IMG/VR virus record: IMGVR_UViG_2909309443_000004 | From: a virus | Taxonomy: Duplodnaviria > Heunggongvirae > Uroviricota > Caudoviricetes | Direction: 5' to 3' (one strand) | Length of the DNA: 35,146 bases | The notes under the pieces: generated by a model | Database searches by the model: none | Told to the model about the DNA's origin: nothing | What the model saw: only the letters and a program-made list of their open reading frames with translations | In this document: piece after piece, positions 1 to 34,007 of the stretch | How positions within the stretch are numbered: the stretch's first letter is position 1 | Layout of the letters: every line of letters begins with the position of its first letter | Made by a program: the position numbers and the translations under genes

Positions 1-1251
1 GTGCTTACCGATACAAAATTAAAAAACCTCAAGCCGCAGGACAAACTGTACAAGGTCTCCGATCGTGACGGGCTGTATGTAGCTGTGCTTACGTCAGGCA
101 CGGTCTCGTTTCGCTATGACTACCGTATCAACGGTCGCCGCGAAACACTGGTAATCGGGCAGTATGGGCGTGACGGTATCAGCCTGGCAGAAGCGCGAGA
201 AGAACTGATTGCTGCAAAGAAGCTGCTTAAAGCAGGCCAGTCACCGGCTGCGGCTAAACGTGACGGTATCAAAAAGATTCGTGGTGCCGAGACGTTTGCG
301 GTACATACCGACAGTTATATGAAACACGTCATCCTGGCTGACAGTACCCGCGCAATGAAACAGGCGGTGATCGACCGTGACATACTTCCGGTTCTTGGCA
401 ATAAAATGATGGCTGAAATTACCACATCGATGGTTCGTGATTTGTGTGACCGGATTGTCGAACGCGGTGGCCGGGCAACAGCAGTGCAGGCCAGGGAGAT
501 CATCAGTAGCGTATACCGTCACGCCAATGACCGTGGTCATGGTTTGTTTAATCCTGCGGCTGACATTAAACCTTCGTCTATCGCCATATTTAAACCACGA
601 GAGCGAACACTGACACCAGAAGAAATTGGCCTGTTCTTCCGCACGCTGGATGCCATTGGTGCTATGGGCACTATGAAAATGGCTTTAAAACTGGTGCTTA
701 TCACTATGGTTCGTAAGGGCGAATTCACCAATGCAACGTGGGATGAAATAGATTTTAAAAAATGGACATGGACAATTCCTCCAGACCGCATGAAGGGAAG
801 CCGGGCGCACGTTATTTACCTGCCTAAACAGGCACAGGATATATTGGTCGGGTTGCAGATGTGCGCTGGTGGAAGTGAATATCTGGTTCCTGGTCGTTAC
901 AATTTCCGGAAGCCATTATCTAATGCCGCGCTGAACTCTCTGATCGACAGAACGGTGAAAATAATAAATGAAGATGGTGAGCATATTCAGGACTTCACTG
1001 TACATGATATGCGCCGTACAGCCAGTACGTTGTTGCATGAGGCTGGTTATCCTTCAGACTGGATTGAAAAGGCTCTGGCACATGAGCAGAAAGGTGTGCG
1101 CGCCGTATATAACAAAGCGGAATACGCCAGACAGCGCGCCTACATGTTGCAGCAGTGGGCCGATATGATTGATTCATGGATTGACGGGGAGCATACGGAT
1201 CTGATTCCGTTCTCCCCGTCGAAGTTTGAGAAGTGGATGGCGGGGGAATAA
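1..1251 (+). CDS. int: Phage integrase, tyrosine recombinase (P4-like family); GTG start at window edge
   Basis: 416-aa ORF; N-terminal region (MLTDTKLKNLKPQDKLYKVSDRDGLYVAV...) typical of P4-type integrase arm-binding domain, C-terminal catalytic region with HDMRRTAST and terminal Tyr-containing segment (AVYNKAEYARQRAYM); sits at prophage end next to early genes. Confidence 0.9.
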   Translation: MLTDTKLKNLKPQDKLYKVSDRDGLYVAVLTSGTVSFRYDYRINGRRETLVIGQYGRDGISLAEAREELIAAKKLLKAGQSPAAAKRDGIKKIRGAETFAVHTDSYMKHVILADSTRAMKQAVIDRDILPVLGNKMMAEITTSMVRDLCDRIVERGGRATAVQAREIISSVYRHANDRGHGLFNPAADIKPSSIAIFKPRERTLTPEEIGLFFRTLDAIGAMGTMKMALKLVLITMVRKGEFTNATWDEIDFKKWTWTIPPDRMKGSRAHVIYLPKQAQDILVGLQMCAGGSEYLVPGRYNFRKPLSNAALNSLIDRTVKIINEDGEHIQDFTVHDMRRTASTLLHEAGYPSDWIEKALAHEQKGVRAVYNKAEYARQRAYMLQQWADMIDSWIDGEHTDLIPFSPSKFEKWMAGE

Positions 1252-1254
1252 CGT

Positions 1255-1449
1255 TTAATAGTTCTGCTGATTTTCTTCCATCTCGGCTTCTGCTGCCAGT
1301 GATTCAATTTTATCTGCGAATATTGCTGACAGTGTTGCAAATTCAGCATCAGTGACAGCGGGAATTGGAACAAACCTGATCCCGCTGTGTGCAAGCATGT
1401 TTGCAGTTTCAAGGCATTTCCTTAAATCTGCTGGTGATGCCCGGTTCAT
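1255..1449 (-). CDS. Hypothetical small protein (~64 aa), start at internal ATG immediately after methyltransferase stop
   Basis: ORF 1255..1569 in track; internal Met (MNRASPADLRK...) at 1449 abuts the stop of the upstream methyltransferase gene, suggesting translational coupling; no recognisable family. Confidence 0.35.
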   Translation of the reverse strand: MNRASPADLRKCLETANMLAHSGIRFVPIPAVTDAEFATLSAIFADKIESLAAEAEMEENQQNY

Positions 1450-2096
1450 GCTGCACGCTCCCGCCCCTGGTTGTCTGTTGGTGACAGCGGAGCATTGCTG
1501 AATGCATTTGTTAATCTGGCAATATCCAATGCGTATCCAGGGTGTAGTTGCACTGCCGGGTCTTCGCACTGATTACCCCAAACATCGAAGCCATGAGACG
1601 ACTGGCGGGCGAACAGTTCAATGCGAGAAACATCGCCTAACAATTGCACAAGTTTTTCACGAACGACATCTGGTTTTCTTGAATGCTCAAGCCGCGGTGC
1701 GGTAAATGACTGAACGATCCCTGCATTAATGCGCGGAGGTAGTTTTCCCTTTACTGCAAACAGGCAATCTTCACTATTGGCGCGAGTCATGTGTCCCATA
1801 CCCATAACCAGTTTATCTGGTTGTCGACTACCACATTTTATCCATGTGAAGCCCTTCATGGTCATCAGACGGAATCCCCAGGCTTCAACAACTTTTAGCG
1901 CTTCGAGTGGTTGTGTTGGCACCCACCACATGGCCAACAGACAGTTTTCATCGGCCAAATCCCACACAGGAAGGCGGCAGATATCCATCACACTCATAAC
2001 CGGATATTTAAAACCGGCACCGCGATTACCATCTGCGGCTTTGTCCCGGTATACCCAGGGTGGATCTGCATAGATTAGTGTGTATTTCTTAGTCAT
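1446..2096 (-). CDS. N6-adenine DNA methyltransferase, MT-A70 family (orphan, no cognate nuclease seen)
   Basis: 216-aa ORF with DPPW catalytic motif (LIYADPPWVYRD) near N-terminus, characteristic of MT-A70/Dam-like phage methyltransferases. Confidence 0.8.
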   Translation of the reverse strand: MTKKYTLIYADPPWVYRDKAADGNRGAGFKYPVMSVMDICRLPVWDLADENCLLAMWWVPTQPLEALKVVEAWGFRLMTMKGFTWIKCGSRQPDKLVMGMGHMTRANSEDCLFAVKGKLPPRINAGIVQSFTAPRLEHSRKPDVVREKLVQLLGDVSRIELFARQSSHGFDVWGNQCEDPAVQLHPGYALDIARLTNAFSNAPLSPTDNQGRERAA

Positions 2097-2388
2097 AAAC
2101 CACCCCGCAACATCCTATACCGCTATAGTCGCCACGGCGAAGGCCGTTACCTTTTGTGATACATTGGTCCCTGCGAACCGCGATCCTTGCACGCTCAACA
2201 TCACCAGAAGCAACATCCATACACTGAAGCCAAAGGTGAGCGGCAATGCGGAACTGTCCTTTTTTCTCTCTTTCAATTGCGCGTTTTTCGATCTCTATCG
2301 CCGCAGGAGTAACGGCGACAATCTTTGACGGACTGCGCATTGAAACCTTGTTCATGTGATATTTTTCAAGTCGGCTTAACTTTCTCAC
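2089..2388 (-). CDS. Hypothetical protein
   Basis: 99-aa ORF in leftward early operon, 8-nt overlap with downstream methyltransferase start; no recognised domain. Confidence 0.4.
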   Translation of the reverse strand: MRKLSRLEKYHMNKVSMRSPSKIVAVTPAAIEIEKRAIEREKKGQFRIAAHLWLQCMDVASGDVERARIAVRRDQCITKGNGLRRGDYSGIGCCGVVYD

Positions 2389-2497
2389 TTAATCCAACCC
2401 TCTCTGAAAATTAATGCCAGCAGATAAAGCCATGCTGAAACAGAGGCCAGGAATAAGTACCATCCTGACCATTTGCTCCAGTGCCTTAGCAGCACAC

Positions 2498-2746
2498 TCA
2501 TGCAGCGTTGCTCACAGGACGATATACACGTTGCTGAACAGGAGGCTTTTTACCCTGGAACTCTGCCGGGCTTGCTGCCTGACGTTCATCAAGCCAACGC
2601 TCAACTTCATCACGGTTCCATGCGCAGCGTTTGTCAGTGATATACCAGCGTTTAGGAAATTCCCCTGCGCGCTCCATGCGGTCGATAGTGCTCCATGACA
2701 GTGGCACCACCGCCAGGAGTTCCTTCTTACCTAATGCACCTTTCAT
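2498..2746 (-). CDS. AlpA-family DNA-binding protein (putative excisionase/transcriptional regulator)
   Basis: 82-aa ORF; segment LSWSTIDRMERAGEFPKRWYITDKRCAWNRDEVERWL matches AlpA/Xis-type HTH pattern (..STIYR.. G.FP.. W...EV..WL). Confidence 0.7.
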   Translation of the reverse strand: MKGALGKKELLAVVPLSWSTIDRMERAGEFPKRWYITDKRCAWNRDEVERWLDERQAASPAEFQGKKPPVQQRVYRPVSNAA

Positions 2747-2795
2747 AAATACCTCTCTTGGTTGCAGTGCGGCGCGCGTGGCGCCGCGGTGGTGG

Positions 2796-3737
2796 TTACA
2801 TAGATGTTTCGTTTAATTCTTCTCGACGAACGCTGTAAACGTCGGTGGCTTTTGCCAGCAGTTCGTCATCATCTGAAAGTTTTTGTGCAATGTATTTGTA
2901 AGCTTTATCCAGTTCGAAGACAGTGCTGTAATTCATCGCTGCGCTGGTAAAGGCCATCAGCATTTCTTCTGGATCACGGCTATCCGCTTTACGCGTTTGC
3001 TCATCAGGCTTTTTCACTTGTTTAGCGTTGATCAGACTGTTCATTCCCGCAGCAGTGGTCGTTTGCGGAGTAATGTCTCGCTCAACGCGCGGTGCCGTTT
3101 CCTGTAATTCGTCTGGTGTGTAGACGCCCATGATTACGTCAGGACAGTGCAGGCGAGACCAGCGTTTTGTCGCAAGGTATGCGAGTTGTTGTTTCGGATC
3201 ACTGGCCCAAAGTGTGGAGTTTCTTACCTGTGCTTGAGACAGCATTAACTCAAGCACTCGAGGTTGATCCTCGCCCTTCATGGTTGCCCATACGCGAACA
3301 CCGCAGCCTTCTTCGTCTTTTAGAGTCCAGCCTGGTGCGATATATGGATTGCCGTTTTTGGATGTTTTCTCAACAAACTTACCGATCACGCGTTCCCACG
3401 GCCCGAACCACTCGTAGTTGATGCGATCTTTTGTTGGCGACATCGTTGAGATAACTGCGTTTACTAATTGGGCTTCATAACCTAGCGTGCCGTTCACAAC
3501 ATGGGTTTTCTGAGCCACGGCAAACGGGTTCATTCCCCACTGCGCAGCCTGCATTGCCACGGCCATGCAATCAGCTGGTTTCCCGGCGAGGTGCGCCGGT
3601 ACCGTTACGCGGCTTTGCGCCATTACCTCGGCGAATTTCATCAGTTGGTTCAAGCCGTCTGGGCTGAAAATAGTTGCAGCAGTTCCAGCGATTGCTGTGT
3701 CTACTGGTGCGTTGATGTTTGCGATGTCGTTGCTCAT
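2796..3737 (-). CDS. recT: RecT-family single-strand annealing recombinase
   Basis: Track ORF 2796..3764; ATG at 3737 overlaps stop of upstream exonuclease gene (ATGA). Sequence features of RecT family (..LWASDPKQQLAYLATKRWSRLHCPDVIMGV..). Confidence 0.85.
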   Translation of the reverse strand: MSNDIANINAPVDTAIAGTAATIFSPDGLNQLMKFAEVMAQSRVTVPAHLAGKPADCMAVAMQAAQWGMNPFAVAQKTHVVNGTLGYEAQLVNAVISTMSPTKDRINYEWFGPWERVIGKFVEKTSKNGNPYIAPGWTLKDEEGCGVRVWATMKGEDQPRVLELMLSQAQVRNSTLWASDPKQQLAYLATKRWSRLHCPDVIMGVYTPDELQETAPRVERDITPQTTTAAGMNSLINAKQVKKPDEQTRKADSRDPEEMLMAFTSAAMNYSTVFELDKAYKYIAQKLSDDDELLAKATDVYSVRREELNETSM

Positions 3738-4555
3738 ATGTACATATCCTGTTTGCGTGCCCACTCAGGGCGTTTAATGATTTCCACACCGCCCCATTCA
3801 TCATTGATGCGGCATTCGTGATAGGTATTCAGATCCCGGCGGAACAGAGCGTGCCCGGCATCGACATCCTGCGCATCCAGCTCGAACACGCGTACCGGAT
3901 ACCGACCACAATCAATGCTTTCGCTCACGGCAAGAAAGAAAAAACCATGCGGCTGACCAGTAACCCTCATTGCGCCTTCGCGGTACATTGCGTCCTGCAC
4001 GTGGTAGCGGAATTCCTCGATGTGGCGTGCAAAACGGTCCATATCTGCAACCTTTTTCACGTCGACGATTACGTTGTGCTCGTTCAGCCATTTGTCTGGA
4101 CGAATTCGGCACAACTCACCCGTCTCTTCATCGTTCCAGTACATTGATGCTTCGCAGTAACCAGGTGCTTCCAACATCCAGCGTGCCGCCGGATGAGCCA
4201 TTGCGCTATCACGCATCAGCTCCAGTTTTCGCCACTGCTCGACATCAAGTACCGTAATACCCATATCCGCCACATCACGAAGAAATGCTTCTTCGTCAGC
4301 TTTACCTTGTTTTGTCCGACGATCTAATTTCGGTGAAACGATGAAGCGTTTGTCGAATTCTCCAGGTTCCAGAAGCAGACAGTGCAATGCGGTTCCCATA
4401 TCCAGTGCAGACTTTTTCTCTTCGTCTTCTGGTGCTGCCTGAACCCATTTAAGAAGCGCCGGATTCTTGGCAACCATGTCCAGTTGCGACTTACTCACGC
4501 CGTCACCGGCGTGGTAGTCTTCGTTGCTGATGTCGAAATAAATTCCCGGTTTCAT
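3734..4555 (-). CDS. Putative exonuclease, PD-(D/E)XK fold (RecE C-terminal domain / exonuclease VIII-like), partner of RecT
   Basis: 273-aa ORF; N-terminal GIYFDISNEDYHAG motif and acidic/Lys catalytic-like residues (..VIVDVKK..) typical of phage PDDEXK exonucleases found beside RecT; start overlaps previous gene stop. Confidence 0.7.
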   Translation of the reverse strand: MKPGIYFDISNEDYHAGDGVSKSQLDMVAKNPALLKWVQAAPEDEEKKSALDMGTALHCLLLEPGEFDKRFIVSPKLDRRTKQGKADEEAFLRDVADMGITVLDVEQWRKLELMRDSAMAHPAARWMLEAPGYCEASMYWNDEETGELCRIRPDKWLNEHNVIVDVKKVADMDRFARHIEEFRYHVQDAMYREGAMRVTGQPHGFFFLAVSESIDCGRYPVRVFELDAQDVDAGHALFRRDLNTYHECRINDEWGGVEIIKRPEWARKQDMYI

Positions 4556-5159: not shown

Positions 5160-5744
5160 TTATTGTTTGCTTTTTTCGTTCTGGTTGATGACAAATTCAA
5201 TGTAACTTTCGATCTTTGCCTTCTCTGTTTCAGGTAACAATGCGTAGCGCGAGCGGTCATAGTTGATAGTCGCGGGGTCGTGCGGGTGAATCAGTAATTC
5301 ATATCCGTGACGCCCAAATGCGGATGCAACATTCTCCAGGGTGGAAATGGAAACGCTGACCTCATTGTTTAACAGGCGGCTGATTGTTACCTGGGCGACG
5401 CCGGATGCGCGGTGAAGTTTTCCCTGCGTTGAAAGGTCGCGGCTTTCGCTCATCCAGCGTTCCAGGTTGTGAGCCGCCAGTTGACCAATGTCGCTTGGTC
5501 CGACAGGCTGAAAACCTTCCTGAGAAAGCGAGCGATCGATATCAAGCCAGTTACGGGGTTTATTGGCGGCAGCTTCAATTTTTCGCGCAACCTGGTCGCC
5601 GATAACCTTCTTGCCAAGAGCCCAGCGGTTTACCAGATTTGCCTGAGTTCCAAGTTTTTCAGCCATCCGCGTCTGAACACCATTGAATTCACGGTCGATC
5701 AAGTCGTTGAGATTTTGCCTGCGGACGTCCTGGATACTTTTCAT
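5160..5744 (-). CDS. Prophage repressor (CI-like), HTH protein without recognisable S24 peptidase domain
   Basis: 194-aa ORF divergent from Cro-like gene; two HTH-like segments (GVQTRMAEKLGTQANLVNRWALGKK and LHRASGVAQVTISRLLNNEVSVSISTLENVASAF); no Ala-Gly/Ser-Lys LexA-like cleavage module evident. Confidence 0.7.
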   Translation of the reverse strand: MKSIQDVRRQNLNDLIDREFNGVQTRMAEKLGTQANLVNRWALGKKVIGDQVARKIEAAANKPRNWLDIDRSLSQEGFQPVGPSDIGQLAAHNLERWMSESRDLSTQGKLHRASGVAQVTISRLLNNEVSVSISTLENVASAFGRHGYELLIHPHDPATINYDRSRYALLPETEKAKIESYIEFVINQNEKSKQ

Positions 5745-5799
5745 TTTCTGGAAAATCGCCTCATATCTGAATCAGAAGATGATTCAATTTAAAGCAATA

Positions 5800-5862
5800 T
5801 TACCCAACAGGTAAATGCACCTCATGGGTAACTATCCTTGATTTTTGTTACCTTATAGGTGA
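5800..5862. promoter_or_regulatory. OR-like operator region: TTACCCAACAGGTAA (5800-5814) and TTACCTTATAGGTGA (5848-5862) between divergent repressor and cro-like genes
   Basis: Same palindrome family as OL; intergenic 154-bp region with AT-rich promoter-like hexamers (TTGATT ... TGAATAT). Confidence 0.55.
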
Positions 5863-5898
5863 ATATTTATTATCTGAAATAAATATCAGGCAATAGCT

Positions 5899-6129
5899 AT
5901 GAGCGATAACGGACATTTCGATTTCAAAAAGCACTGGCTTGCACTTACTCCGGATGAGCGTGAAGCCTTCGCACAGGAAGCCGGAACGACGAGTCACTAT
6001 ATCCAGACTCACTTAACAGGTAAGCGCAAAATGCCAGGTAAGGTATTGATGGATGGGCTTTTTAAAGCCTGTAAATCAAGACAATGGCTGCGCTCAAAAG
6101 CAGAACTGGCATACTTCTTCTACTCATGA
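5899..6129 (+). CDS. Cro-like small HTH regulator
   Basis: 76-aa ORF divergent from repressor; HTH-like segment EREAFAQEAGTTSHYIQTHLTGKRKMP. Confidence 0.6.
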   Translation: MSDNGHFDFKKHWLALTPDEREAFAQEAGTTSHYIQTHLTGKRKMPGKVLMDGLFKACKSRQWLRSKAELAYFFYS

Positions 6130-6184: not shown

Positions 6185-6199
6185 GTACCTCAAGGGTAA
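6185..6199. promoter_or_regulatory. Operator-like palindrome GTACCTCAAGGGTAA
   Basis: One-mismatch member of TTACC-N5-GGTAA family, 80 bp upstream of the 6280 ATG. Confidence 0.4.
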
Positions 6200-6279
6200 T
6201 AAAAAACCAAATATGGTTGATCTTTTTTTTGTGTCAGCACAAAATAACCGTAATCCCAATACTAATAACAGGGCTTACC

Positions 6280-6495: not shown

Positions 6496-7311
6496 ATGAG
6501 CAGACATGCAACAGATTGGGCCTGGGAGACAGATCCAGGTAGCTCGTCATTAAAGCTCATACTGCTCTCGATGGCTGACAGAGCCGATGAATATAACCTC
6601 TGCTACCCCAGCATAGAACGCCTCGTTAAAGACACTTGCCTGAATAAAAAAACCGTGCAGGCCGGACTTATATCGCTCATGAAAATGGGGCTTATTTCAG
6701 ATACCGGGGAGAGAAAGGGAGCGACAAAAAGAGTGCGGGTTTTCTCTCTTAATATAACCAAAAACGGGAACATTAAAGGCAACCGAGAGGGGGGCAATGA
6801 ACCCGAAAACGGTAATGTTACCGAAAACGGGAATATACCCAAAAACGGGATGTTGAATGATCCCAAAAACGGGATGTTGAATGATCCCAAAAACGGGATC
6901 CAGAACCAGTCATATAACCAGTCATTTAACCAAGAGAGGGAGAGCAGGACAAAAAACGGGGATTCTGTGCATCATGACCCCGGCGCAAACAACGCCGTGA
7001 TGAATAACTTTGTTCCTCCTGGTGGGCCAGGGCAATTAGGCAAATTTGTCATGCATGAACAATGGCAGCCATCAGATGACTTTCTTCGGAAAAGCTCATT
7101 GCAGGGGATCTACCTGGACAGTCTGCCAACGGCACAGGAACTTGCAGAGTTCAGAATTTACTGGATGGCTGAGGGTAAGGCATACCATCAGGCACAGTGG
7201 GAGCAGAAGCTGGCAAGGCGGCTGCAGATTAGCAGACAGAAGCAATCAACATTACCTGATAACAACGTTCCGCACTGGAACAGCCCTGAAGCATGGGAGG
7301 ATTTCTTGTGA
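6496..7311 (+). CDS. Replication initiator, lambda O-like N-terminal HTH domain with DnaT-like C-terminal region
   Basis: 271-aa ORF; N-terminus (..LKLILLSMADRADEYNLCYPSIERLVKDTCLNKKTVQAGLISLMKMGLI..) typical of phage replisome organiser HTH; contains iteron array in linker. Confidence 0.7.
   Translation: MSRHATDWAWETDPGSSSLKLILLSMADRADEYNLCYPSIERLVKDTCLNKKTVQAGLISLMKMGLISDTGERKGATKRVRVFSLNITKNGNIKGNREGGNEPENGNVTENGNIPKNGMLNDPKNGMLNDPKNGIQNQSYNQSFNQERESRTKNGDSVHHDPGANNAVMNNFVPPGGPGQLGKFVMHEQWQPSDDFLRKSSLQGIYLDSLPTAQELAEFRIYWMAEGKAYHQAQWEQKLARRLQISRQKQSTLPDNNVPHWNSPEAWEDFL
6757..6903. repeat. Iteron array (putative phage origin of replication) inside initiator gene: ~6 copies of CCAAAAACGGGA-like unit, including an exact 24-bp tandem duplication
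   Basis: Direct repeats accaaaaacgggaacatt / cccgaaaacggtaatgtt / accgaaaacgggaatata / cccaaaaacgggatgttgaatgat (x2) / cccaaaaacgggatcc; encode KNGN/ENGN peptide repeats. Confidence 0.65.
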
Positions 7312-8093
7312 ACAACGTTTTTACCGCGATACAAAACCGTGACGGAGAAGCCCTTTCTCGCATGTCAGGTTATGAGCATCAGTACACCAACAATGACAAC
7401 GTAGTGAACATGTCAGCAGAGAGGCTTGTTGATGCCCTTTTCAAACAGTTGAAACAACTGTTTCCGGCGGCAGTGGTAACCAACCTGAAGACGCCAGAGC
7501 AGGAAGTTGCTGCAAAACAGCAGTGGATTGCTGCGTTTGCCGAAGGGGGGATCCGAACCCGTGAACAGGTTTCTGCTGGTATGCGCCACGCCCGCGCCAG
7601 TGAATCTCCGTTCTGGCCGTCGCCAGGGCAATTTATCAAGTGGTGTAAAGACAGCAAGATGGTTCTTGGCGTCACCATTGACGATGTGATGGCGGAGTTT
7701 CACCGGTACAGCAAGGAAAAAAGTTTATATCCTGGTGGTCCCGAAAGATTCCCGTGGCGGCATCCGGTTATGTACTGGGTCGTATGTGATACACGCCGTG
7801 CAATGTATCAGCGCCAGCTTAGCGAGATTGAGGTTGAGAAACACGCGCGCAGGCTGCTCGATGATTGGGCGAAAAAGGTGGCTTCCGGACAGCAGATACC
7901 CGATCCGGTGATCAGCATACAGGCAAAGCCAGAGCCCATGAGTACGCCTCCGGACACAGGGAGAGACGTTTACCATCCACCAGGGCGAAGTTTCGGGTGC
8001 ATGCCTAACGCCGCCACCCTTGGGGGAATAACACCGGCGCAGTGGCTGATGGAGGAATACAGGCGGGGAAAGGCGGCAGGATTTATCAAGTAA
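7293..8093 (+). CDS. Replication protein P-like helicase loader (lambda P family)
   Basis: Segment FPAAVVTNLKTPEQEVAAKQQWIAAFAEGGIRTREQVSAGMRHARASESPFWPSPGQFIKWCKD closely parallels lambda P (..QWVLAFRENGITTMEQVNAGMRVARRQNRPFLPSPGQFVAWCRE..); alternative GTG start at 7308 overlapping O-like stop. Confidence 0.85.
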   Translation: MGGFLVNNVFTAIQNRDGEALSRMSGYEHQYTNNDNVVNMSAERLVDALFKQLKQLFPAAVVTNLKTPEQEVAAKQQWIAAFAEGGIRTREQVSAGMRHARASESPFWPSPGQFIKWCKDSKMVLGVTIDDVMAEFHRYSKEKSLYPGGPERFPWRHPVMYWVVCDTRRAMYQRQLSEIEVEKHARRLLDDWAKKVASGQQIPDPVISIQAKPEPMSTPPDTGRDVYHPPGRSFGCMPNAATLGGITPAQWLMEEYRRGKAAGFIK

Positions 8094-12858: not shown

Positions 12859-12888
12859 AAAACTCCTGACCGCATTATAAAAACGGTC

Positions 12889-23045: not shown

Positions 23046-23050
23046 ATTAA

Positions 23051-26018: not shown

Positions 26019-26049
26019 CATGTCACAGGCCGCTTTCGCGGCCTTGTTT

Positions 26050-26211: not shown

Positions 26212-26282
26212 TGTGAAATTTCCATCTATAAGCCACCTCAATGTGGCGTCAATGAGTGTAGCACTGACTTTTGTTTCGTCCA

Positions 26283-26304
26283 CAAAAAATCCCGCAGCGC
26301 GGGC
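26283..26304 (-). terminator. Rho-independent terminator after 147-aa gene
   Basis: Minus-strand hairpin CCCGC-gct-GCGGG followed by TTTTTTG, 2 nt after stop of 26305..26748 ORF. Confidence 0.5.
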
Positions 26305-26748
26305 TTATTCTTCTTCTTCATCATTAAAAAGCGGATTGTTGTTTCCATCTGATGAAAGGAAAGGTATGTGTTCTCTTGAAAATCCAACAATGACAATTTC
26401 ATTATCATTTTTTGCATAATGAATGCATTCATTAGAATGCATTCCGCCAGGGTTGAAATTTAAGTTAATGGTATAATTCTTAAATGTGTTTGGATACCAT
26501 GTTGGCCCACAATGATAATGCCAATAATTCTCTTGCTCATAATTGTCTGAGCCTGGAATTTTATCATGGTTATCATCAACCCACGAGGGCTTGTTTTTTC
26601 CAACAAGCGCCCTTCCATTGGCAACATCCTCTAAAAACCTTTGTATGATTTTTATTTCATCATCAGTAAGGAAAGGTCCGTCTACAGCGAAAGGGGTGTT
26701 GCTTTCCCCATGTAGAAAACTATTAGATATTCTAATGTTAAACTTCAA
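26305..26748 (-). CDS. Unknown AT-rich moron protein with acidic C-terminal tail (147 aa)
   Basis: TTG start 7 nt after AGGAG; markedly lower GC than surroundings; His/Cys cluster (YWHYHCGP...HSNECIHY) and terminal FNDEEEE; no recognised family. Confidence 0.55.
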   Translation of the reverse strand: MKFNIRISNSFLHGESNTPFAVDGPFLTDDEIKIIQRFLEDVANGRALVGKNKPSWVDDNHDKIPGSDNYEQENYWHYHCGPTWYPNTFKNYTINLNFNPGGMHSNECIHYAKNDNEIVIVGFSREHIPFLSSDGNNNPLFNDEEEE

Positions 26749-26768
26749 GGAAAACTCCTGATGTGCTT

Positions 26769-26936
26769 CTATTTGGAGCGAAATGCCGCCTTGAAGTCGC
26801 TAAAAGATGTTCCTGTCTGGTAAACCATATCCTTGTCGCGCTCTTTGCTTGCGCGACCAAGCATAACTTTTCCAATGACATCCCAGCATTGCTTGGCTTG
26901 TTCATTGTGCTGAGTACGATTTTTCAACGCTGTCAT
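26769..26936 (-). CDS. Small basic protein (55 aa), first gene of two-gene operon with 26305..26748
   Basis: Manually translated MTALKNRTQHNEQAKQCWDVIGKVMLGRASKERDKDMVYQTGTSFSDFKAAFRSK; GGAGG 6 nt upstream of ATG; operator palindrome 12 bp upstream. Confidence 0.4.
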   Translation of the reverse strand: MTALKNRTQHNEQAKQCWDVIGKVMLGRASKERDKDMVYQTGTSFSDFKAAFRSK

Positions 26937-26948
26937 ATCGCGCCTCCT

Positions 26949-26963
26949 TTACCTTTAAGGTAA
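26949..26963. promoter_or_regulatory. Operator palindrome TTACCTTTAAGGTAA overlapping promoter of 26936<-operon
   Basis: Perfect TTACC-N5-GGTAA; upstream (minus-strand sense) TTGGCG ... TAATAT hexamers at -35/-10-like spacing. Confidence 0.5.
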
Positions 26964-27029
26964 TATTACGCGAATCTACATCACATCGCCAATGATTATT
27001 TTAAAGGCACATCCCTGTGCCGCCGCCCG

Positions 27030-27749
27030 TCAGAAGAACCCTGCCTTGTCGTTGATGTACTCCGCGTGGGTCTGGATATCACGCAGGCATTTGCTCACAC
27101 CGACGATGTAGCAGAACATGGTGGTCAGTTCCGCCGCCGCGCCCGATACGTCATGCCCGTCTTCCTGTAACTGGTTCAGCAAATTCATCAGCAGTGAGTT
27201 CTCCGTCAGGCCGAGAACACCAGACGGTGAATGAATCAGGCTACGGTAGCCGGGCTTCAGTGGGGCGCTGTAGGTTTTGTTCTCTATCTTCATTGCCTGC
27301 ATCACTGCTGATGCTGTGGCGTTGGCTACCTGGTCGGCAACCATCTTTATGCGTTCTTCTTGCGGGAGCGAGTTTTTAATGTAACTTCCGGTGCGGCGGA
27401 TCTGAGGAAGAACCTCACCTGTAACCCATTTACGAAAGCGGTATGGGATAGTGCCTGGTGTCACCGCATCGCGGCAGCGGAGGATCAGTGTGTAGAGGCC
27501 TGACTCGTTGATAATATTGGTTTCGCCTTGACGGCCTAAGTTAAATTTAGCCCTTTCATCATCATCAAGAGATTTTATTGACATAGTGGGGTTTGTCAGT
27601 TGAAGAGCTTTAATAACGTCTTTGGCAACAAACCAAGGATTAATCGCAAATCCAACTCTCCTCAGAGTTATAACGCTCAAACGCTTTACACATACTTTGT
27701 GTTGGTGCTGGAGGGCGTTCAAGGGCAGCCATGACTTGCTCCCAAACAT
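27030..27749 (-). CDS. Bro-N-like antirepressor-type protein with C-terminal domain paralogous to 28868..29125 product
   Basis: Track ORF 27030..27758; Bro-N-like segment GFAINPWFVAKDVIKAL...SGLYTLILRCRDAVTPGTIPYRFRKWVTGEVLPQIRRTG; C-terminal ~90 aa share clear similarity with ORF 28868..29143. Confidence 0.6.
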   Translation of the reverse strand: MFGSKSWLPLNALQHQHKVCVKRLSVITLRRVGFAINPWFVAKDVIKALQLTNPTMSIKSLDDDERAKFNLGRQGETNIINESGLYTLILRCRDAVTPGTIPYRFRKWVTGEVLPQIRRTGSYIKNSLPQEERIKMVADQVANATASAVMQAMKIENKTYSAPLKPGYRSLIHSPSGVLGLTENSLLMNLLNQLQEDGHDVSGAAAELTTMFCYIVGVSKCLRDIQTHAEYINDKAGFF

Positions 27750-27924
27750 CCTCTTCAACGATCAAGCGGCGATGTTCATTAATAACTGTTTCAGCTCTAA
27801 AAGTCGTAGACTCCATTACAAATTGAGATACGGACACTTTAGAAATAACAGCAGCTTCTTCGATACGGCGCTTCGCAGCTTCGGGCAGACGAAACTCGAA
27901 CCGCTCCTTTCTTACTGCGTTCAT
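27640..27924 (-). CDS. DUF1778-like ribbon-helix-helix protein (TacA-antitoxin-like / Arc-like regulator)
   Basis: Track ORF 27640..27948 (GTG); ATG 27924 lies 5 nt after AGGAG; sequence MNAVRKERFEFRLPEAAKRRIEEAAVISKVSVSQFVMESTTFRAETVINEHRRLIVEEDVWEQVMAALERPPAP fits DUF1778 RHH pattern; no GNAT toxin partner present. Confidence 0.6.
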   Translation of the reverse strand: MNAVRKERFEFRLPEAAKRRIEEAAVISKVSVSQFVMESTTFRAETVINEHRRLIVEEDVWEQVMAALERPPAPTQSMCKAFERYNSEESWICD

Positions 27925-27988
27925 AACAACTCCTGAGCTAATGCTCACAGTGGTTTATACCACATAACGATATGCACGGTACGGGAAT

Positions 27989-28096
27989 TTACCGTACAGG
28001 TAATGATAAGCGCGAAGAAATATTAAAATCAACCTTATTTGGTTGATTGCGTTTAACGCTTGATCACCTGAAAGCAAGATATTACCTTTAAGGTAA
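27989..28096. promoter_or_regulatory. Operator pair TTACCGTACAGGTAA (27989-28003) and TTACCTTTAAGGTAA (28082-28096) in divergent promoter region
   Basis: Two perfect palindromes between divergent RHH/Bro-N operon and membrane zinc-ribbon gene. Confidence 0.5.
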
Positions 28097-28116
28097 TGTT
28101 ATTGTGAGGAAAAGCA

Positions 28117-28845
28117 ATGGAAGTTTTCTGGATAGTTGTTGGTGTGGTTGCGGTGATTATTTACGTTATCAACCAGAACAAGACTAAGATCTCTGATCGT
28201 ACGGTCGTTAATCATAACAAAACGATAAAGACCGAAGATGGGGAGATAACGATTAATCGTACACAGGTGATAGAACACACCTCTACTCAGTTTCAAAAAA
28301 CTGGAGGTAATGCGCCTAATATTTCCGCACCTCCTGCTTATGATAGTGCGGTAATCCAGACATATTATAAACAGCAGGAGTTAGCAAAAGAGAGGCAACT
28401 GATTCAGCCAAAGCCGTTTACAACTGAGATTCCACCTGGAGTGTCAACGCGTCCGGCATATCATGGAAGATTCCCTGGTGATGACATATCGTCTCAGTCA
28501 TCTAAAAAAGCACCTCAGGCAATATCAGAGCCAGCAAGAATACCTTCTGTATCGCCGCAAAAAGAAGAATCAGCTAACAGAGTTTCAAGTGGTAGCAAGC
28601 AGTGCTTGCGATGCAGAATAAACCTTCCATATGAAAAATTCAGGAAATCGTCAAAAAATCCAGATGGATTGACTAAATGGTGTGCAAGGTGTCTCGATGG
28701 CCCAAAGAATACACGCCATATGAAGTGGTGCCCAATTTGTAATGTCCGCAGAAAACGAACCAGCTTTTACCCTAATAATCAAAATGCGGACGGCTTAATG
28801 GCATGGTGCAAAACGTGCTGGGATGAGCACAAAGCGAAACGATAG
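28117..28845 (+). CDS. Membrane-anchored protein with duplicated C-terminal zinc-ribbon motifs, function unknown
   Basis: 242-aa ORF; N-terminal TM helix (FWIVVGVVAVIIYVI), long low-complexity linker, then two repeats CLRCRINLPYEKFRKSSKNPDGLTKWCARC and CPICNVRRKRTSFYPNNQNADGLMAWCKTC. Confidence 0.6.
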   Translation: MEVFWIVVGVVAVIIYVINQNKTKISDRTVVNHNKTIKTEDGEITINRTQVIEHTSTQFQKTGGNAPNISAPPAYDSAVIQTYYKQQELAKERQLIQPKPFTTEIPPGVSTRPAYHGRFPGDDISSQSSKKAPQAISEPARIPSVSPQKEESANRVSSGSKQCLRCRINLPYEKFRKSSKNPDGLTKWCARCLDGPKNTRHMKWCPICNVRRKRTSFYPNNQNADGLMAWCKTCWDEHKAKR

Positions 28846-28867
28846 GCCGCTCTTGCGGCCTTTAAAT

Positions 28868-29125
28868 TTACCGGGTTTGTTTTCGTAATTGTTCGGCACA
28901 ATAGTCGAGATGTGTTTGCAGATCCCGCATAGACATCTGTGAGCTGGTGACGTAGTTAATCAGTGCAGTCAGTTCGGCAAGTGGGCCATCGACATTAAAT
29001 CCATCCTTATCGAGATCCCGGAGTAATTTCATCAAGTGCGATCCCTCCACCAGTGACCTGACGCCTCCCGGCGTGTGAATCCTTTCGGTAAATCCGTCTT
29101 CCAGTGGATAGTGATACCGCTGCAT
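28868..29125 (-). CDS. Small protein paralogous to C-terminal domain of Bro-N-like protein
   Basis: Track ORF 28868..29143 (TTG); ATG at 29125 with GGAG RBS; ..LMKLLRDLDKDGFNVDGPLAELTALINYVTSSQMSMRDLQTHLDY.. aligns with ..LMNLLNQLQEDGHDVSGAAAELTTMFCYIVGVSKCLRDIQTHAEY.. of 27030 gene. Confidence 0.55.
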   Translation of the reverse strand: MQRYHYPLEDGFTERIHTPGGVRSLVEGSHLMKLLRDLDKDGFNVDGPLAELTALINYVTSSQMSMRDLQTHLDYCAEQLRKQTR

Positions 29126-29320: not shown

Positions 29321-31921
29321 ATGACGGTCTCAACCGAAGTTGACCACAACGAATACACCGGTAACGGCGTTACGACATCATTTCCGTATACCTTCCGTAT
29401 TTTCAAAAAAACCGACCTGGTTGTTCAGGTGTCTGATCTGAACGGGAACGTAACAGAATTGGTTCTGGATACCGGTTATAAGGTAACTGGAGCGGGCACT
29501 TATAGTGGCGGTGAAGTGGTTCTCCCGTCGCCGCTTGCTGCTGGCTGGCGAATTACGATAGAGCGTGTGCTTGATGTGGTGCAGGAGACTGATCTTCGCA
29601 ATCAGGAAAAATTTTTCCCCGAAGTTCATGAAGATGCATTTGACTACCTGACGATGCTGATCCAGCGATGTTTTGGGTGGTTCAGACGTGCATTGATGAA
29701 ACCCTCGTTGCTTGCAAAATATTACGATGCAAAGCAAAACAGAATATCTAACCTTGCTGATCCATCACTTGAGCAGGACGCTGTAAATAATCGCTCAATG
29801 CGTAATTATGTCGATGCTGCAATCGCCGGGGTTGTTGGTGGTTTTGGTTGGTTTATTCAGTATGGTTCTGGAGCAGTATACCGAACGTTCCAGGATAAGA
29901 TGCGGGATGAAGTAAATATTCGTGATTTTGGAGCAGGAGATTCAGGTGAAGTTACAGATGCTATTTTGAAGGCTGTTGCAGCTACTAATGGCACCATTAT
30001 TATCCCGGATGGAAATTATGTTTCTACTCCAACAGTAACGCAGACTCCGAACGTTATGAAATTGCTTTCACGAGCAGAGTTTAGAGGTTCTTTGACCATC
30101 AATCTTCCTGTTGGAACTGTTAACCTATCAGAAAAGACGCTAATCAGATCACAAAATGTTCATAAACTTTCTATTTCTGGTATTACGTATTCAACTACGC
30201 TAACTGGCTTAGTGGGTGTATCTGGTATCCCCAAATCATACCTAGTTACGCTCTCTCTGGCTGATGCTTCAAACGTTTCTGTAGGCGACGTCGTGATGAT
30301 TCGTCACGATATAACGGGGACAGGAGGATATCACATCCATTGTGGCGGATGGGTTGTGACTGCCGTGTCTGGCAAAAATGTTACCGTAAAAAACACCTGC
30401 CACCTGTCTGAATTACCAACGTCAACGATTACAGGCGGAACAGTAGTCATACTAAAAAGTATTCTGAGATATGCCGGATGTGATGGGATTGTGGCTGCAG
30501 GTGCTGGGTGCATTAAGACAATAAACGGTGTCGCAATTGTTGGTGATTATGACCTTGTGGCCGGCACTGGAACTATTGGTGCGCATGGTTTCTCCCTCAC
30601 TACTCCAGACATTACTGTTGCCATCCCAGACCCATCCAACGTGGTTTTTGATGCGTCAGGATGTATAGCAATTGGGCCTGATCTGGCGATCGTTGGGTTC
30701 GGAGAACAGGGGGTCGTGGCTTCAGAAAGATCTGGTGTGGTTTCAAACTTTATATCTTCATGCTCTAACCGCAAGCGCGGTGTATATTCTGAAGGCGCTC
30801 ATATACGCGGTAAATTTATGCTTTGCTCAGGGAATGGTGAGGATGGGATTATTGCTGATATTGGTGGCGCAATACAGGCTAACGGATCAGTTTGCTCTGG
30901 CAATGGGTTGAATGGGTTCTGGTCTTTTAATCATAGTTTTTTGGGGGCACCAGGGGGGATTGCGTGCGGTAACTATACCAATGGTGGTGAATCACGCGGA
31001 CCAGGTGCATTAAATCTGCAAAATGGGAAGAGCTATTTAAACAGGCTAATTGGTGTAACCGCTTCAAATAGCGGTGCAGTTATTTTCACTAACTCAACTG
31101 CCACACAAAATGGCACGGATGGTCTGGTTGCTGTTTACGATGGCTTAATATCTGCCGCCAATGCCAATTCAACGAGCAACGGTCGCTATGGGGTTAACGT
31201 AACTCACGCAAAAATTGTGCTTAAAGGCTCTGGAGGAGTGACTGGTAACACAACGGGAGATTACATCGATAACGGCGAGGGCACAATAATCAAGCCAGAT
31301 GGTACTATGCTGCCGAGGAATGCTGGCCCGCAAAGCATCCTTTCTATTCGTAACGCCAATCTTTCCGGTGCTGATGTCACGGCATCATCAATAGGCGATC
31401 TCACCGTCTCGCAAAGAAACACATCCTCGGGTGCATTAACCCCCCTGTATGTATTCAAATCTGACGGAACCCAGCATCCAGTCAATGACGCCACGCAGAA
31501 CCTTGGCAGGGCAAGCAATCGCTACAATGTTGGTTTCTTCGCTGGCGGAACACAGTCAACTTCAGATGCCACACTTAAAGACCCTATCCGGGAGTTCAAT
31601 CAGGCCGAACTCAATGCAGCAATGCGCATCTCGAAAATGTTTGGATTCTGGACGTGGCTTGATGATGACAGTAAGCGTTTGCATGCAGGGACTACGGTTC
31701 AAGCAGTGTTAGCTGTTCTGGAAGAGGAAGGTCTAGACTGGCGGAGCTATGGATTTATCTGTTTTGATGAGTGGGATGATGAATATACCCCGGTAACCAT
31801 TGAGGTAGATGGCGAAGTCGTTGAAACTGGCGAACTGCAATTAGTACGTGAGTCTGGTTCTGTATGGCAATTACGCGATCAGGAATTTGACAGATTCGTG
31901 ATGCGTGGACTTTCCGAATGA
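29321..31921 (+). CDS. Tailspike protein: T7 gp17-like N-terminal anchor, central beta-helix-like receptor-binding/depolymerase region, C-terminal intramolecular chaperone (peptidase S74-like)
   Basis: 866-aa ORF; N-terminus MTVSTEVDHNEYTGNGVTTSFPYTFRIFKKTDLVVQV typical of podovirus fibre/spike anchor; Gly/Ser/Asn-rich repetitive middle; C-terminal S-D-A-T-L-K autoproteolysis-like motif followed by conserved chaperone block. Confidence 0.8.
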   Translation: MTVSTEVDHNEYTGNGVTTSFPYTFRIFKKTDLVVQVSDLNGNVTELVLDTGYKVTGAGTYSGGEVVLPSPLAAGWRITIERVLDVVQETDLRNQEKFFPEVHEDAFDYLTMLIQRCFGWFRRALMKPSLLAKYYDAKQNRISNLADPSLEQDAVNNRSMRNYVDAAIAGVVGGFGWFIQYGSGAVYRTFQDKMRDEVNIRDFGAGDSGEVTDAILKAVAATNGTIIIPDGNYVSTPTVTQTPNVMKLLSRAEFRGSLTINLPVGTVNLSEKTLIRSQNVHKLSISGITYSTTLTGLVGVSGIPKSYLVTLSLADASNVSVGDVVMIRHDITGTGGYHIHCGGWVVTAVSGKNVTVKNTCHLSELPTSTITGGTVVILKSILRYAGCDGIVAAGAGCIKTINGVAIVGDYDLVAGTGTIGAHGFSLTTPDITVAIPDPSNVVFDASGCIAIGPDLAIVGFGEQGVVASERSGVVSNFISSCSNRKRGVYSEGAHIRGKFMLCSGNGEDGIIADIGGAIQANGSVCSGNGLNGFWSFNHSFLGAPGGIACGNYTNGGESRGPGALNLQNGKSYLNRLIGVTASNSGAVIFTNSTATQNGTDGLVAVYDGLISAANANSTSNGRYGVNVTHAKIVLKGSGGVTGNTTGDYIDNGEGTIIKPDGTMLPRNAGPQSILSIRNANLSGADVTASSIGDLTVSQRNTSSGALTPLYVFKSDGTQHPVNDATQNLGRASNRYNVGFFAGGTQSTSDATLKDPIREFNQAELNAAMRISKMFGFWTWLDDDSKRLHAGTTVQAVLAVLEEEGLDWRSYGFICFDEWDDEYTPVTIEVDGEVVETGELQLVRESGSVWQLRDQEFDRFVMRGLSE

Positions 31922-32059: not shown

Positions 32060-32473
32060 GTGGTCACTATGTCGCACACGTTAACCACGGGAACGCTGAA
32101 TCAGGGGCTTAGCCTGAGCGCGCTAATGTCTGTGGTCGCTGGCGTGCCGCCTGAAGTGGCTTTAGGGGCGCTCGCTGGTGCGGTAATTTTTGTTACCTCT
32201 GCTGTCGAGTATCCGATCCGCCGCCGGGTTCTCCTGTCGATGCTCAGCTTTCTTTGTGGCCTTCTCTTTTACAAACCAGCAGCATCAATTCTTATCGGCA
32301 TAGCCAGCCTGATACCTACCATCACGCAGGATTCTTTCGAGAAAGGGATTGTTTTCTCTGCTGGCGCATTCGTGTCAGCAATCGTCGCAGTACGAATTGG
32401 CATCTGGCTCTATCACCGTTCCGATAATCCACGCGAGTTAATTCCGGGGAGAAAAGACGATGGTAACGCATGA
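32060..32473 (+). CDS. Holin-like membrane protein
   Basis: 137-aa ORF (GTG 32060 or ATG 32069) with multiple hydrophobic segments, first gene of lysis cassette upstream of endolysin. Confidence 0.55.
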   Translation: MVTMSHTLTTGTLNQGLSLSALMSVVAGVPPEVALGALAGAVIFVTSAVEYPIRRRVLLSMLSFLCGLLFYKPAASILIGIASLIPTITQDSFEKGIVFSAGAFVSAIVAVRIGIWLYHRSDNPRELIPGRKDDGNA

Positions 32474-32768
32474 GTTTTTTTTGCTTATCACCAATGCAGT
32501 TATTTGTACTGGCATAGCAATTCGCGTTGTCACATTCCGGCGTAACGGCTCTCAACATCGAAGATGGGGAGGGTGGCTTGCTTATTTCCTTATTGTTGCT
32601 GCGGCCAGTATTCCTGTTCGTGTCGTCTATGCAATCTGGTTACGCACGCCAATGGCTGTGGATTTATCTGAGGTCATTATCAATGCTGTCATGCTTGCCG
32701 CGGTTATTAAAACACGCGGTAACGTTGTTCAGATTTTCAAAATATCGAGGTCTAAACATGGAGATTAA
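32460..32768 (+). CDS. Second small membrane protein of lysis cassette (possible antiholin/pinholin-like)
   Basis: 102-aa ORF with 3 hydrophobic helices, overlaps holin end and endolysin start. Confidence 0.45.
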
Positions 32769-33387
32769 ACAATTCCAGCGAGCTGCTGGTATTAGCGAGG
32801 CGCTGGCCGCACGCTGGTTCTCGCATATAACTTCTGCGATGAAAGAGTTTGGTATCAGCAAACCAGAAGATCTGGCAATGTTTATTGCTCAGGTCGGGCA
32901 TGAGTCTGGAGGCTTCACCCGGTTGCAGGAAAATTTCAACTACAGCGTCAGCGGACTGGCTAATTTCGTTCGGGCTGGGCGTCTCACTCAGGGACAGGCC
33001 AACGCATTGGGGCGTCGTGCTGGTGAACCACCATTGCCACTTGAGCGCCAGAGAGCGATCGCCAATCTGGTGTACAGCAAACGCATGGGTAACAATGCCC
33101 CAGGCGATGGATGGAATTACCGTGGGCGCGGACTTATCCAGATTACCGGTTTGAATAACTATCGTGACTGCGGAAACGGCCTGAAAGTGGACCTGCTGGA
33201 GAGTCCTGAACTGCTGGCGCAGGACGAATACGCGGCTCGTAGCGCGGCGTGGTTTTTTGCCAGCAAAGGCTGCATGAAGTATACCGGCGATATTGCACGT
33301 GTAACTCTGATTATCAATGGTGGCCGGAACGGCATTGATGACCGGCGCGCGCGATACATCACTGCCAGTAAGGTGCTGGCGGTATGA
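32758..33387 (+). CDS. Endolysin, glycoside hydrolase family 19 (chitinase-like lysozyme)
   Basis: Track ORF 32527..33387; ATG at 32758; motifs [33 protein letters not shown] typical of GH19 phage endolysins. Confidence 0.85.
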
Positions 33388-33881
33388 TCTGGGCATTCGC
33401 AAAAGCATACTGGAAACAGTTGGTTATCATGGCGATGCTTGCTGTTCTGGTCATATCAGGAGTTGTAGCCTGGAATGCACACGGCAGTCGTCAGTACGAC
33501 GCCGGGTATGCGCAGGCACAGGAAGATCAGAAGCAGGCTGATGATAAGGCCAGGTCACAACGTGATCAGGAGAAAACACAAATTGAACGTGAAGCACAAT
33601 CCCGTATCGATGTGGCGCGTGTTGATGCTGAGCATGCTAATGCCGCTGCTGACAGCCTGCGCGCCGAGCTTGACAAAACCAAGCGACTCGCCGAACACTA
33701 TACCGGATCTTTCCCCACTGGCACGCCAGCCAGCAAGGTCATCGGTGTGCTCGCCGACATGCTTGAAGAAAGCAATCGAGTTTACAACGCAACAGCAGCT
33801 GAGGCTGAAAAGTATCGGATTGCAGGAGAATCCTGCGAACAGCAATACGATTCACTGAGGAAGCAAAAATCGTGGCACTGA
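33384..33881 (+). CDS. Rz-like i-spanin
   Basis: 165-aa ORF, N-terminal TM helix ([18 protein letters not shown]) then coiled-coil periplasmic domain; ATG overlaps endolysin stop. Confidence 0.7.
33610..33858 (+). CDS. Rz1-like o-spanin lipoprotein embedded in +1 frame of Rz
   Basis: Embedded ORF with signal peptide and lipobox ([12 protein letters not shown]) followed by Pro-rich segment; wholly inside Rz gene. Confidence 0.5.
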   Translation: MWRVLMLSMLMPLLTACAPSLTKPSDSPNTIPDLSPLARQPARSSVCSPTCLKKAIEFTTQQQLRLKSIGLQENPANSNTIH

Positions 33882-34007
33882 TTTCCGGTGACGGTATATA
33901 AAACGGTACGGTGAAAATCAGGTTGCAGAAAGTTGTTATCAGTCAATTGGTTATGGTATCCGTAAATAATTGAGTGGGAATGATTTGACCCTGCACTATG
34001 AATGAAC

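Follow-up and report, generated by a model that had tools for sequence, protein, structure and literature searches.

The temperate podoviruses phiV10, epsilon15 and ZX5 have a published 17-bp attP/attB core in common, ATTGAGTGGGAATGATT, and the study of ZX5 that describes it termed the integrase P4-type, demonstrated the function of the homologous ZX5/phiV10-group repressor, which it reports as identical in sequence within that group, and likewise put the role of the antirepressor to an experimental test in ZX5; epsilon15 differs in immunity specificity, and the repressors are 42% identical (PMC9782041). The phiV10 record (NC_007804), classified as Uetakevirus phiV10, also labels its integrase P4-type. 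According to a review, epsilon15 shows synteny with T7 and a T7-like core stack with little sequence similarity to T7 (PMC8954989), and Uetakevirus tailspikes follow a published model in which an anchor carries an exchangeable receptor domain (PMC10408124). We compared these phages with IMG/VR virus record IMGVR_UViG_2909309443_000004, a stretch of 35,146 bp with a G+C content of ~50% (the window in what follows). The window almost certainly holds a defective (cryptic) Uetakevirus prophage, closest to phiV10, from an Escherichia coli lineage whose named members are O6:H16.

In the working scheme established for the genus, the P4-type integrase of an intact phage recombines the 17-bp core over the guaA stop codon and regenerates the end of guaA. 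A CI-like helix-turn-helix (HTH) repressor silences the prophage and a Bro-N antirepressor promotes its induction; replication relies on an iteron-containing initiator gene and a lambda-P-type loader. The short-tailed virion combines a portal of the T7 gp8 family with a capsid of the epsilon15 type, which bears cement and staple proteins. An adaptor and a nozzle, internal ejection proteins and a tailspike specific for O-antigen complete the particle.

Identity and boundaries of the prophage

The best match of the window is E. coli strain E8, to whose chromosome (NZ_CM180514.1) it is 99.991% identical, with three mismatches to the RefSeq sequence at 13153, 13327 and 21746, two of them within an IS66 transposase gene. 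The window may stem from a different assembly version or a nearly identical isolate. Between positions 1 and 24000, the window is 98.0% identical in nucleotide sequence to phiV10 and to the O157 typing phages 9 and 10 over 89% of the interval, and 97-98% identical to phiv142-3, PAS61, ZX5 and HEMP4; coverage of these first 24 kb by phiV10-group relatives is 82-89%, and all of them belong to the genus Uetakevirus. The genus-level criterion is a nucleotide identity above 70%. The Salmonella Uetakeviruses PAT1 and 65FD share only ~77-79% DNA identity with the window.

By blastn, the window is collinear with phiV10 apart from three defined breaks. It shares with the phiV10 group the order of modules in the lysogeny, recombination, immunity, replication and virion parts, the 97-98% nucleotide identity, the 17-bp att core at guaA and a repressor that is 99.5% identical to that of phiV10. 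A tblastn audit of 55 phiV10 coding sequences found a match in the window for 38; absent are TerS, TerL, p03, p04, p16, p21, the O-acetyltransferase gene oac, Rz1 and p46-p55. The differences from the phiV10 group are the absence of ~7.2 kb (from the p45 C-terminus to p55, TerS, TerL, p03 and p04), the absence of 1.3 kb (the nozzle C-terminus, p16 and the p17 N-terminus), the presence of an IS66-family insertion sequence (IS) inside the capsid gene, the antirepressor/accessory region (25.5-28.9 kb) and the tailspike receptor domain, the lack of an O-acetyltransferase gene, and divergent Rz/Rz1 genes. With Salmonella phage epsilon15, the window shares the capsid gp7 family (PF20911), the gp10 staple family (PF21628), the overall module order and the sequence of the att core (PMC9782041).

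We found nothing that contradicts this identification. The first-pass annotation, made from the letters of the window, had proposed an epsilon15/phiV10-like temperate podovirus lineage, which the 97-98% nucleotide identity to the phiV10 group and the guaA att core bear out; its description of a cryptic prophage with an IS insertion and a missing terminase agrees with an IS66 element at 12001-14532 and the absence of TerS and TerL by tblastn. The joining of these lysogeny and virion modules is the usual organization of a Uetakevirus, not a new combination, and this type of prophage is already known.

In the E8 chromosome, the element lies between guaA and yfgI. Its right end is marked by one feature.

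33969-33985, plus strand: attR core ATTGAGTGGGAATGATT, the longest repeat common to both flanks, with the same sequence as the attL copy at the stop codon of guaA

The attL copy takes in the stop codon of guaA and the codons just before it and lies 191-207 bp to the left of window position 1 in the E8 flank, and similarity to phiV10 stops exactly at attR. The prophage extends from just outside the left end of the window to 33985, past the right end of 33900 first proposed; a search for a matching att repeat had been proposed for the 33.9-34.1 kb region, where the 17-mer was found. A search of the left flank for a tRNA had been proposed as well. That flank is guaA; no tRNA is involved in the integration, and ARAGORN detected none in the window; no Rfam family of structured RNAs reached its gathering score there. 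To the right, the host DNA (34076-35146) consists of yfgI and yfgH. The yfgH gene (34631-35146, minus strand) has a premature TAG at codon 127 (34766-34768) and is annotated as a pseudogene in E8 by the Prokaryotic Genome Annotation Pipeline (PGAP), and it is intact in strain FDAARGOS_1077.

Two clonal deletions and a recent insertion

The three breaks in collinearity involve the following features, together with a DUF1064 gene.

11223-12000 and 14533-14748, plus strand: major capsid gene of the epsilon15 gp7 family, in two parts (PF20911; pseudogene halves by PGAP)
12001-14532, plus strand: ISEc23-like IS66-family element, 2532 bp (Pfam, PGAP)
12086-12511, plus strand: tnpA (HTH_Tnp_1)
12508-12858, plus strand: tnpB (TnpB_IS66)
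12889-14502, plus strand: tnpC, the DDE transposase (DDE_Tnp_IS66 with zf-IS66, LZ and C-terminal domains)
16562-18733, plus strand: nozzle/p17 fusion open reading frame (ORF), 723 aa (tblastn, alignment to phiV10)

At the junction 8332/8333, the blastn alignment jumps from phiV10 position 35272 to position 3372. The corresponding deletion is ~7.2 kb long (phiV10 35273-39104 plus 1-3371) and shows 2 bp of microhomology (TC). It truncates the DUF1064 gene, leaving a remnant at 8211-8333 that has lost the C-terminus, and by tblastn it takes away p46-p55, TerS, TerL, p03 and p04. It costs the element both subunits of the terminase, the regulator p55, whose gene stands ahead of those for the terminase, and 12 other genes. 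The identical junction occurs, contiguous, in 15 complete genomes, O6:H16-labelled strains included.

A second deletion, which the first-pass annotation had missed, removed 1309 bp between 13-bp repeats (TACCGGCGCTGAT), with its junction at 18412-18424. Lost are the last ~200 codons of the nozzle gene, p16 as a whole and codons 1-75 of p17, and residues 1 to ~620 of the nozzle are joined in frame to the last 106 residues of the gp14-family core protein p17. The nozzle was identified with phiV10 p15 as the query (PDB 8ck1_A, E 3e-217).

The third lesion divides the major capsid gene into halves that correspond to query residues 1-264 and 258-328 of phiV10 p10 (tblastn). Like other ISEc23/IS66-family members, the inserted element has three ORFs, terminal inverted repeats that start with GTAAGCG, and a flanking target duplication. 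Its inverted repeats match at 19 of the first 24 positions, and the duplication (GTTAAAG, 7 bp) lies at 11994-12000 and 14533-14539.

The distribution of these lesions among related genomes orders them in time. Five sister complete genomes match this region at ~100% identity and are 2540 bp shorter; in one of them, FDAARGOS_1077, the capsid gene is intact and both deletions are present. The junction between the IS and the capsid gene was found in E8 only (1 of 5426 genomes). Because this junction is unique to E8 and the IS-free sisters carry both deletions, the insertion is the most recent lesion. Consequently, both deletions are older and clonal, and the insertion is recent.

These comparisons suggest a stepwise decay. 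An illegitimate deletion of ~7.2 kb would have removed the terminase subunits, the regulator corresponding to phiV10 p55 and a nin-like region. A deletion of 1309 bp between 13-bp repeats would have fused the nozzle to the end of the gp14-family protein, with the loss of p16, and in E8 only an IS66-family element would have entered the major capsid gene. The combined loss of the terminase and p55, the nozzle-p17 fusion and the IS in the capsid gene would leave the E8 copy unable to make particles. The locus offers a well-resolved case of prophage decay, two clone-wide illegitimate deletions followed by a strain-specific insertion, and the deletion and IS junctions are usable as lineage markers for these strains; its significance beyond correct annotation is small.

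An apparently complete Uetakevirus prophage occupies guaA in strain 2016C04-116 (NZ_CP131685.1, locus 1183-42071), where the same tailspike receptor domain is accompanied by the terminase genes, an uninterrupted capsid gene and a nozzle of full length. That prophage also has a tRNA-Arg gene between its terminase and portal regions, two large proteins rather than three after the gp14-family gene, one of 905 aa that contains an SLT domain and one of 1004 aa, and a different antirepressor region that contains an Arc-family gene.

Alternative readings of the locus

Full-length reading frames remain for the integrase, the putative excisionase, the repressor, RecET, the replication genes, the tailspike and the lysis cassette. 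Judging by these genes, the remnant can presumably confer homoimmunity and might excise. Several points weigh against reading the locus as a prophage that has lost its function by stepwise decay. Non-function was deduced from gene content, and the residual immunity, excision and lysis functions are predictions from the sequence. The deletions are defined against phiV10 and its relatives and not against the true ancestor, and what exactly this lineage lost with the 7.2 kb is assumed, the region being variable within the genus. Finally, an 8-bp target duplication is usual for IS66 elements; the perfect duplication here is 7 bp, and 8 bp is reached only with one mismatch.

Selection may have kept the remnant for a benefit to the host, such as homoimmunity to Uetakeviruses or anti-phage accessory genes, with the nozzle-gp14 fusion possibly expressed as a chimera. 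We consider this unlikely; it would draw on the fixation of both deletions across the lineage with O6:H16 named members and on the full-length frames of the repressor, RecET, replication, tailspike-lysis and accessory genes, where the accessory genes are those for a TacA-like ribbon-helix-helix protein with a Bro-N protein and for a 242-aa zinc-ribbon protein. A phage satellite of the PICI or P4 kind, dependent on a helper Uetakevirus for its terminase and capsid, would superficially resemble the locus in gene content, since the integrase, an AlpA-type regulator, the repressor and the replication genes are kept and the terminase is lost. However, the element is 98% identical to and collinear with a full phage, and nearly the whole ~17-kb virion module is still present. 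Its losses look like random decay (a deletion with 2-bp microhomology in the middle of the DUF1064 gene, a deletion in structural genes and an IS), the packaging site beside the terminase genes was probably also within the deleted region, and Pfam, PADLOC and PHROGs detected no genes for capsid-size redirection or helper interference. A satellite is therefore very improbable.

We give next to no credence to a functional, inducible temperate phage whose defects are annotation problems. The integrase, repressor, antirepressor, replication, tailspike and lysis frames are indeed full-length and 80-100% identical to phiV10, and both att cores are intact, but TerS and TerL are found nowhere in the window by tblastn, a 2.5-kb IS splits the capsid gene, the nozzle ends ~200 residues short, p16 is lost and p17 has no N-terminus. 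It is just as hard to believe that faulty assembly or scaffolding of one draft genome produced the deletions and the IS. While the E8 record is described as a whole-genome-shotgun chromosome, from which the window differs at three bases, two within the IS, the larger deletion has the identical junction in 15 complete genomes that were assembled independently. In addition, the annotation of FDAARGOS_1077 shows pseudogene fragments at both deletions, and the IS is bounded by proper inverted repeats and by a target-site duplication. Stepwise decay of a once complete Uetakevirus prophage is the reading that we retain.

Extent of the likeness to T7

Apart from the interrupted capsid gene and the nozzle/p17 fusion, the virion module contains the following genes.

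8538-10217, plus strand: portal (PF12236, E 4e-188)
10214-10510, plus strand: Bbp19-like protein (PF25181)
10513-11208, plus strand: p09, a protein in the scaffold position, labelled peptidase (phrog_458)
14800-15237, plus strand: Bbp16-type cement protein (PF21190)
15248-15583, plus strand: hypothetical protein
15634-15957, plus strand: gp10 capsid staple (PF21628)
15957-16562, plus strand: tail adaptor (PDB 8ck1_E, E 4e-26)
18733-25525, plus strand: three large virion proteins, p18 (837 aa), p19 (600 aa) and p20 (824 aa) (phrog_992, phrog_1145 and phrog_684)

A T7-like virion module had been proposed for this locus, and the likeness proved partial. The order of genes agrees with T7 (portal, scaffold-position gene, capsid, adaptor, nozzle, small core proteins, large ejection proteins of which one is muralytic, and fibre or spike). 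T7 gp8 belongs to PF12236 (E 3e-113), the same family as the window's portal, and phiV10 p17, with 31.2 bits, passes the cutoff of 27 for PF24072, the family of T7 gp14; the p17 remnant in the window (the last 106 aa) gives no PF24072 match. An AlphaFold2 model of the adaptor, with a predicted local distance difference test score (pLDDT) of 87.8, matches T7 gp11 (7box_M; Foldseek E 3.4e-6, template modelling score [TM] 0.57) and the KP32 tubular protein A (E ~3e-6, TM ~0.57), and it matches the Carin-1 connector much better (TM 0.82). As modelled, the adaptor has the fold of T7 gp11 (tubular protein A).

The likeness does not extend to the capsid, adaptor and nozzle sequence families or to an RNA polymerase. 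The window's proteins match none of the T7 families PF21703, PF05396, PF17212 and PF25675 (capsid, scaffold, adaptor and nozzle), although T7's own proteins do, and BLASTP and phmmer searches against T7 virion proteins returned nothing significant. The capsid family differs from that of T7, and the window's group has cement and staple proteins; matches to PF20911, PF21628 and PF21190 far above their cutoffs show that the epsilon15-type capsid set is present, with its capsid gene interrupted. The terminase lies at the right end in T7, whereas the phiV10 group has it upstream of the portal. No phage single-subunit RNA polymerase is encoded among the window's large ORFs, all of which are accounted for. 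Autographiviridae are strictly lytic, in contrast to the temperate element in the window with its integrase, repressor and att sites. In function, the module resembles a short tail of the T7 type with ejection proteins, but the element is no member of the T7 group. For epsilon15-type virions, the analysis thus restricts the label T7-like to the order of the genes, the families of the portal and gp14, and the fold of the adaptor, excluding the capsid and most sequence families.

The nearest solved structures for the adaptor and nozzle are the tails of phage Carin-1 (PDB 8ck1) and Legionella LME-1 (PDB 9efk), where the names connector and tail nozzle of Carin-1 in 8ck1 come from the description returned by the fold search. 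Carin-1 and LME-1 are separate phages whose tail proteins alone were compared, and the window's nozzle is truncated.

The three large virion proteins and the tailspike (29321-31921) stand in the order first annotated. Proteins p18, p19 and p20 are 96-99% identical to those of phiV10 (tblastn) and are presumed, from the literature (PMC8954989), to be ejection/core and tail-hub proteins. A muralytic segment at residues ~249-398 of p18 has lysozyme-like matches in the PDB. Matches to siphovirus or myovirus tail proteins would have spoken for another virion type, and none of the window's proteins matched sheath, tube or baseplate families. The sole 'tape measure' match in PHROGs covers residues 193-422 of p18, its muralytic segment only; p18 otherwise matches a podovirus virion family over its full length, and we rejected a siphovirus or myovirus tail.

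The p09 protein is labelled a protease or peptidase in RefSeq, PGAP and PHROGs. It has no match in Pfam, NCBIfam or the PDB and hence no support from these for a peptidase. It is acidic (43 D+E against 28 K+R) with an N-terminal region rich in Pro, Ala and Lys, and its gene occupies the place of a scaffolding gene; it may be the scaffold of the first-pass annotation, and the peptidase label may be a propagated mis-annotation.

Integration, recombination, immunity and replication genes

The left part of the prophage carries these genes.

1-1251, plus strand: P4-type tyrosine integrase (Pfam Arm-DNA-bind_3, Phage_int_M and Phage_integrase; 98.8% identical to phiV10 p31)
within 1255-2746, minus strand: early-left accessory genes for a DUF1382 protein, a PerC-family regulator and a small membrane protein (Pfam, PGAP)
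1446-2096, minus strand: MT-A70 orphan methyltransferase (Pfam; PADLOC MTase_II)
2498-2746, minus strand: AlpA-family HTH protein (Pfam, PGAP)
2796-3737, minus strand: RecT (Pfam RecT)
3734-4555, minus strand: PDDEXK/RecE-like nuclease (Pfam DUF3799)
5160-5744, minus strand: HTH repressor (Pfam HTH_3; 99.5% identical to phiV10 p40)
5899-6129, plus strand: gene in the Cro position, 76 aa, divergent from the repressor gene (by position)
6496-7311, plus strand: DnaT-domain/HTH_36 initiator (Pfam DnaT, HTH_36)
7308-8093, plus strand: lambda-P-family helicase loader (Pfam Phage_lambda_P PF06992, E 1.5e-56)

The Pfam families Arm-DNA-bind_3/Phage_integrase, RecT and DUF3799 agree with the integrase and RecET-like genes of the first-pass annotation. 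The AlpA-family HTH protein is likely the excisionase, a role assigned from its family. The MT-A70 methyltransferase (type II-like) has no restriction partner, is 97% identical to its phiV10 counterpart and is probably a phage anti-restriction or regulatory methylase. By tblastn, the RecT/RecE-like pair is 97-99% identical to phiV10 p37. The two are separate ORFs with a 4-bp overlap in the window and in PGAP-annotated relatives, and the phiV10 reference has a single 586-aa 'RecE-RecT fusion'; either the fusion in phiV10 is real or there is a frameshift or sequencing difference at the junction.

A repressor/Cro switch had been read here, and the HTH_3 repressor and a divergent small gene are present, although the 76-aa protein in the Cro position has no Pfam family match. 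Operator-like palindromes (TTACC-N5-GGTAA) lie between the two genes at 5798-5870. One further palindrome of this kind lies 3' of the gene in the Cro position (6186-6201).

The proposal of lambda O/P-type replication held for P (PF06992) and not for O, in whose place stands the DnaT-domain/HTH_36 protein without a Pfam match to the lambda O family. Within the initiator gene, at 6750-6902, we found ~6-7 copies of an iteron-like repeat with the core CC(C/G)AAAA(A)CGGGA, spaced 18-24 bp apart, which are probably the replication origin in a layout like that of lambda gene O. The initiator thus resembles lambda O in having iterons inside its gene and differs from it in sequence family.

Accessory region, tailspike and lysis genes

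The right part of the prophage is the most variable and carries the features below.

25722-29125, both strands: variable accessory/antirepressor region, including small ORFs (Pfam, PHROGs)
27030-27680, minus strand: Bro-N antirepressor (Pfam)
27640-27924, minus strand: TacA/DUF1778 ribbon-helix-helix (RHH) protein (Pfam)
28117-28845, plus strand: zinc-ribbon protein, 242 aa (phrog_6762)
28868-29125, minus strand: p24 homologue (PHROGs/Pfam)
29321-31921, plus strand: modular tailspike (Pfam, PHROGs, tblastn)
32069-33881, plus strand: lysis cassette, including two holin-family proteins (Pfam)
32758-33387, plus strand: GH19 endolysin (Pfam)
33384-33881, plus strand: i-spanin Rz (Pfam)
33625-33858, plus strand, in the +1 frame inside Rz: embedded o-spanin candidate with the lipobox LLTAC (from the sequence)

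The tailspike consists of two parts with different relatives. Its first ~160-200 residues (~185 aa) are the Uetakevirus anchor and the only part common to other Uetakeviruses, and residues ~190-866, the receptor-binding domain, share 88-95% identity with the tail fibres of lytic coliphages that are otherwise unrelated. These phages are Sashavirus 536P12, Justusliebigvirus/VEcB and Phapecoctavirus 536P1, and the C-terminus is an S74 chaperone domain. Because the receptor domain is shared with lytic coliphages, some of them named for strain 536, it is a candidate O-antigen-specific depolymerase; specificity for O6 is a reasonable guess from the host serotype (O6:H16 lineage). Searching with tblastn, we found no O-acetyltransferase (oac) gene 3' of the tailspike.

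In eight genomes of the lineage, including the O6:H16 strains M9682-C1 and 2011EL-1370-2, the tailspike (query, window 29900-31921) is matched only from query position 635 (~30534), with extra matching places within the same record. This pattern indicates a further disruption of the tailspike gene in that sub-lineage.

Between 25.5 and 28.9 kb, the window is largely replaced relative to phiV10 and partly common to other Uetakeviruses. The TacA/DUF1778 RHH gene overlaps the start of the Bro-N gene and has no GNAT toxin partner; by analogy with the layout of P22 arc-ant, it may encode a regulator of the antirepressor and not an antitoxin. The 242-aa protein, alone on the plus strand in the accessory region, has C-terminal zinc-ribbon-like repeats with weak similarity to endonuclease VII, Lar and HNH proteins. 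A PADLOC defence scan gave no match in the accessory region and only the orphan MT-A70 methyltransferase in the window. A promoter scan of the variable region counted no more sites than in shuffled sequence. The same region has 13 terminator-like hairpins where 3.9 were expected, an excess in keeping with the gaps between short gene cassettes.

In the lysis cassette, Rz is 52% identical to its phiV10 counterpart and Rz1 is undetectable by tblastn, and the adjoining endolysin is 97% identical. The divergence of Rz and the o-spanin candidate beside a conserved endolysin suggests a local module swap.

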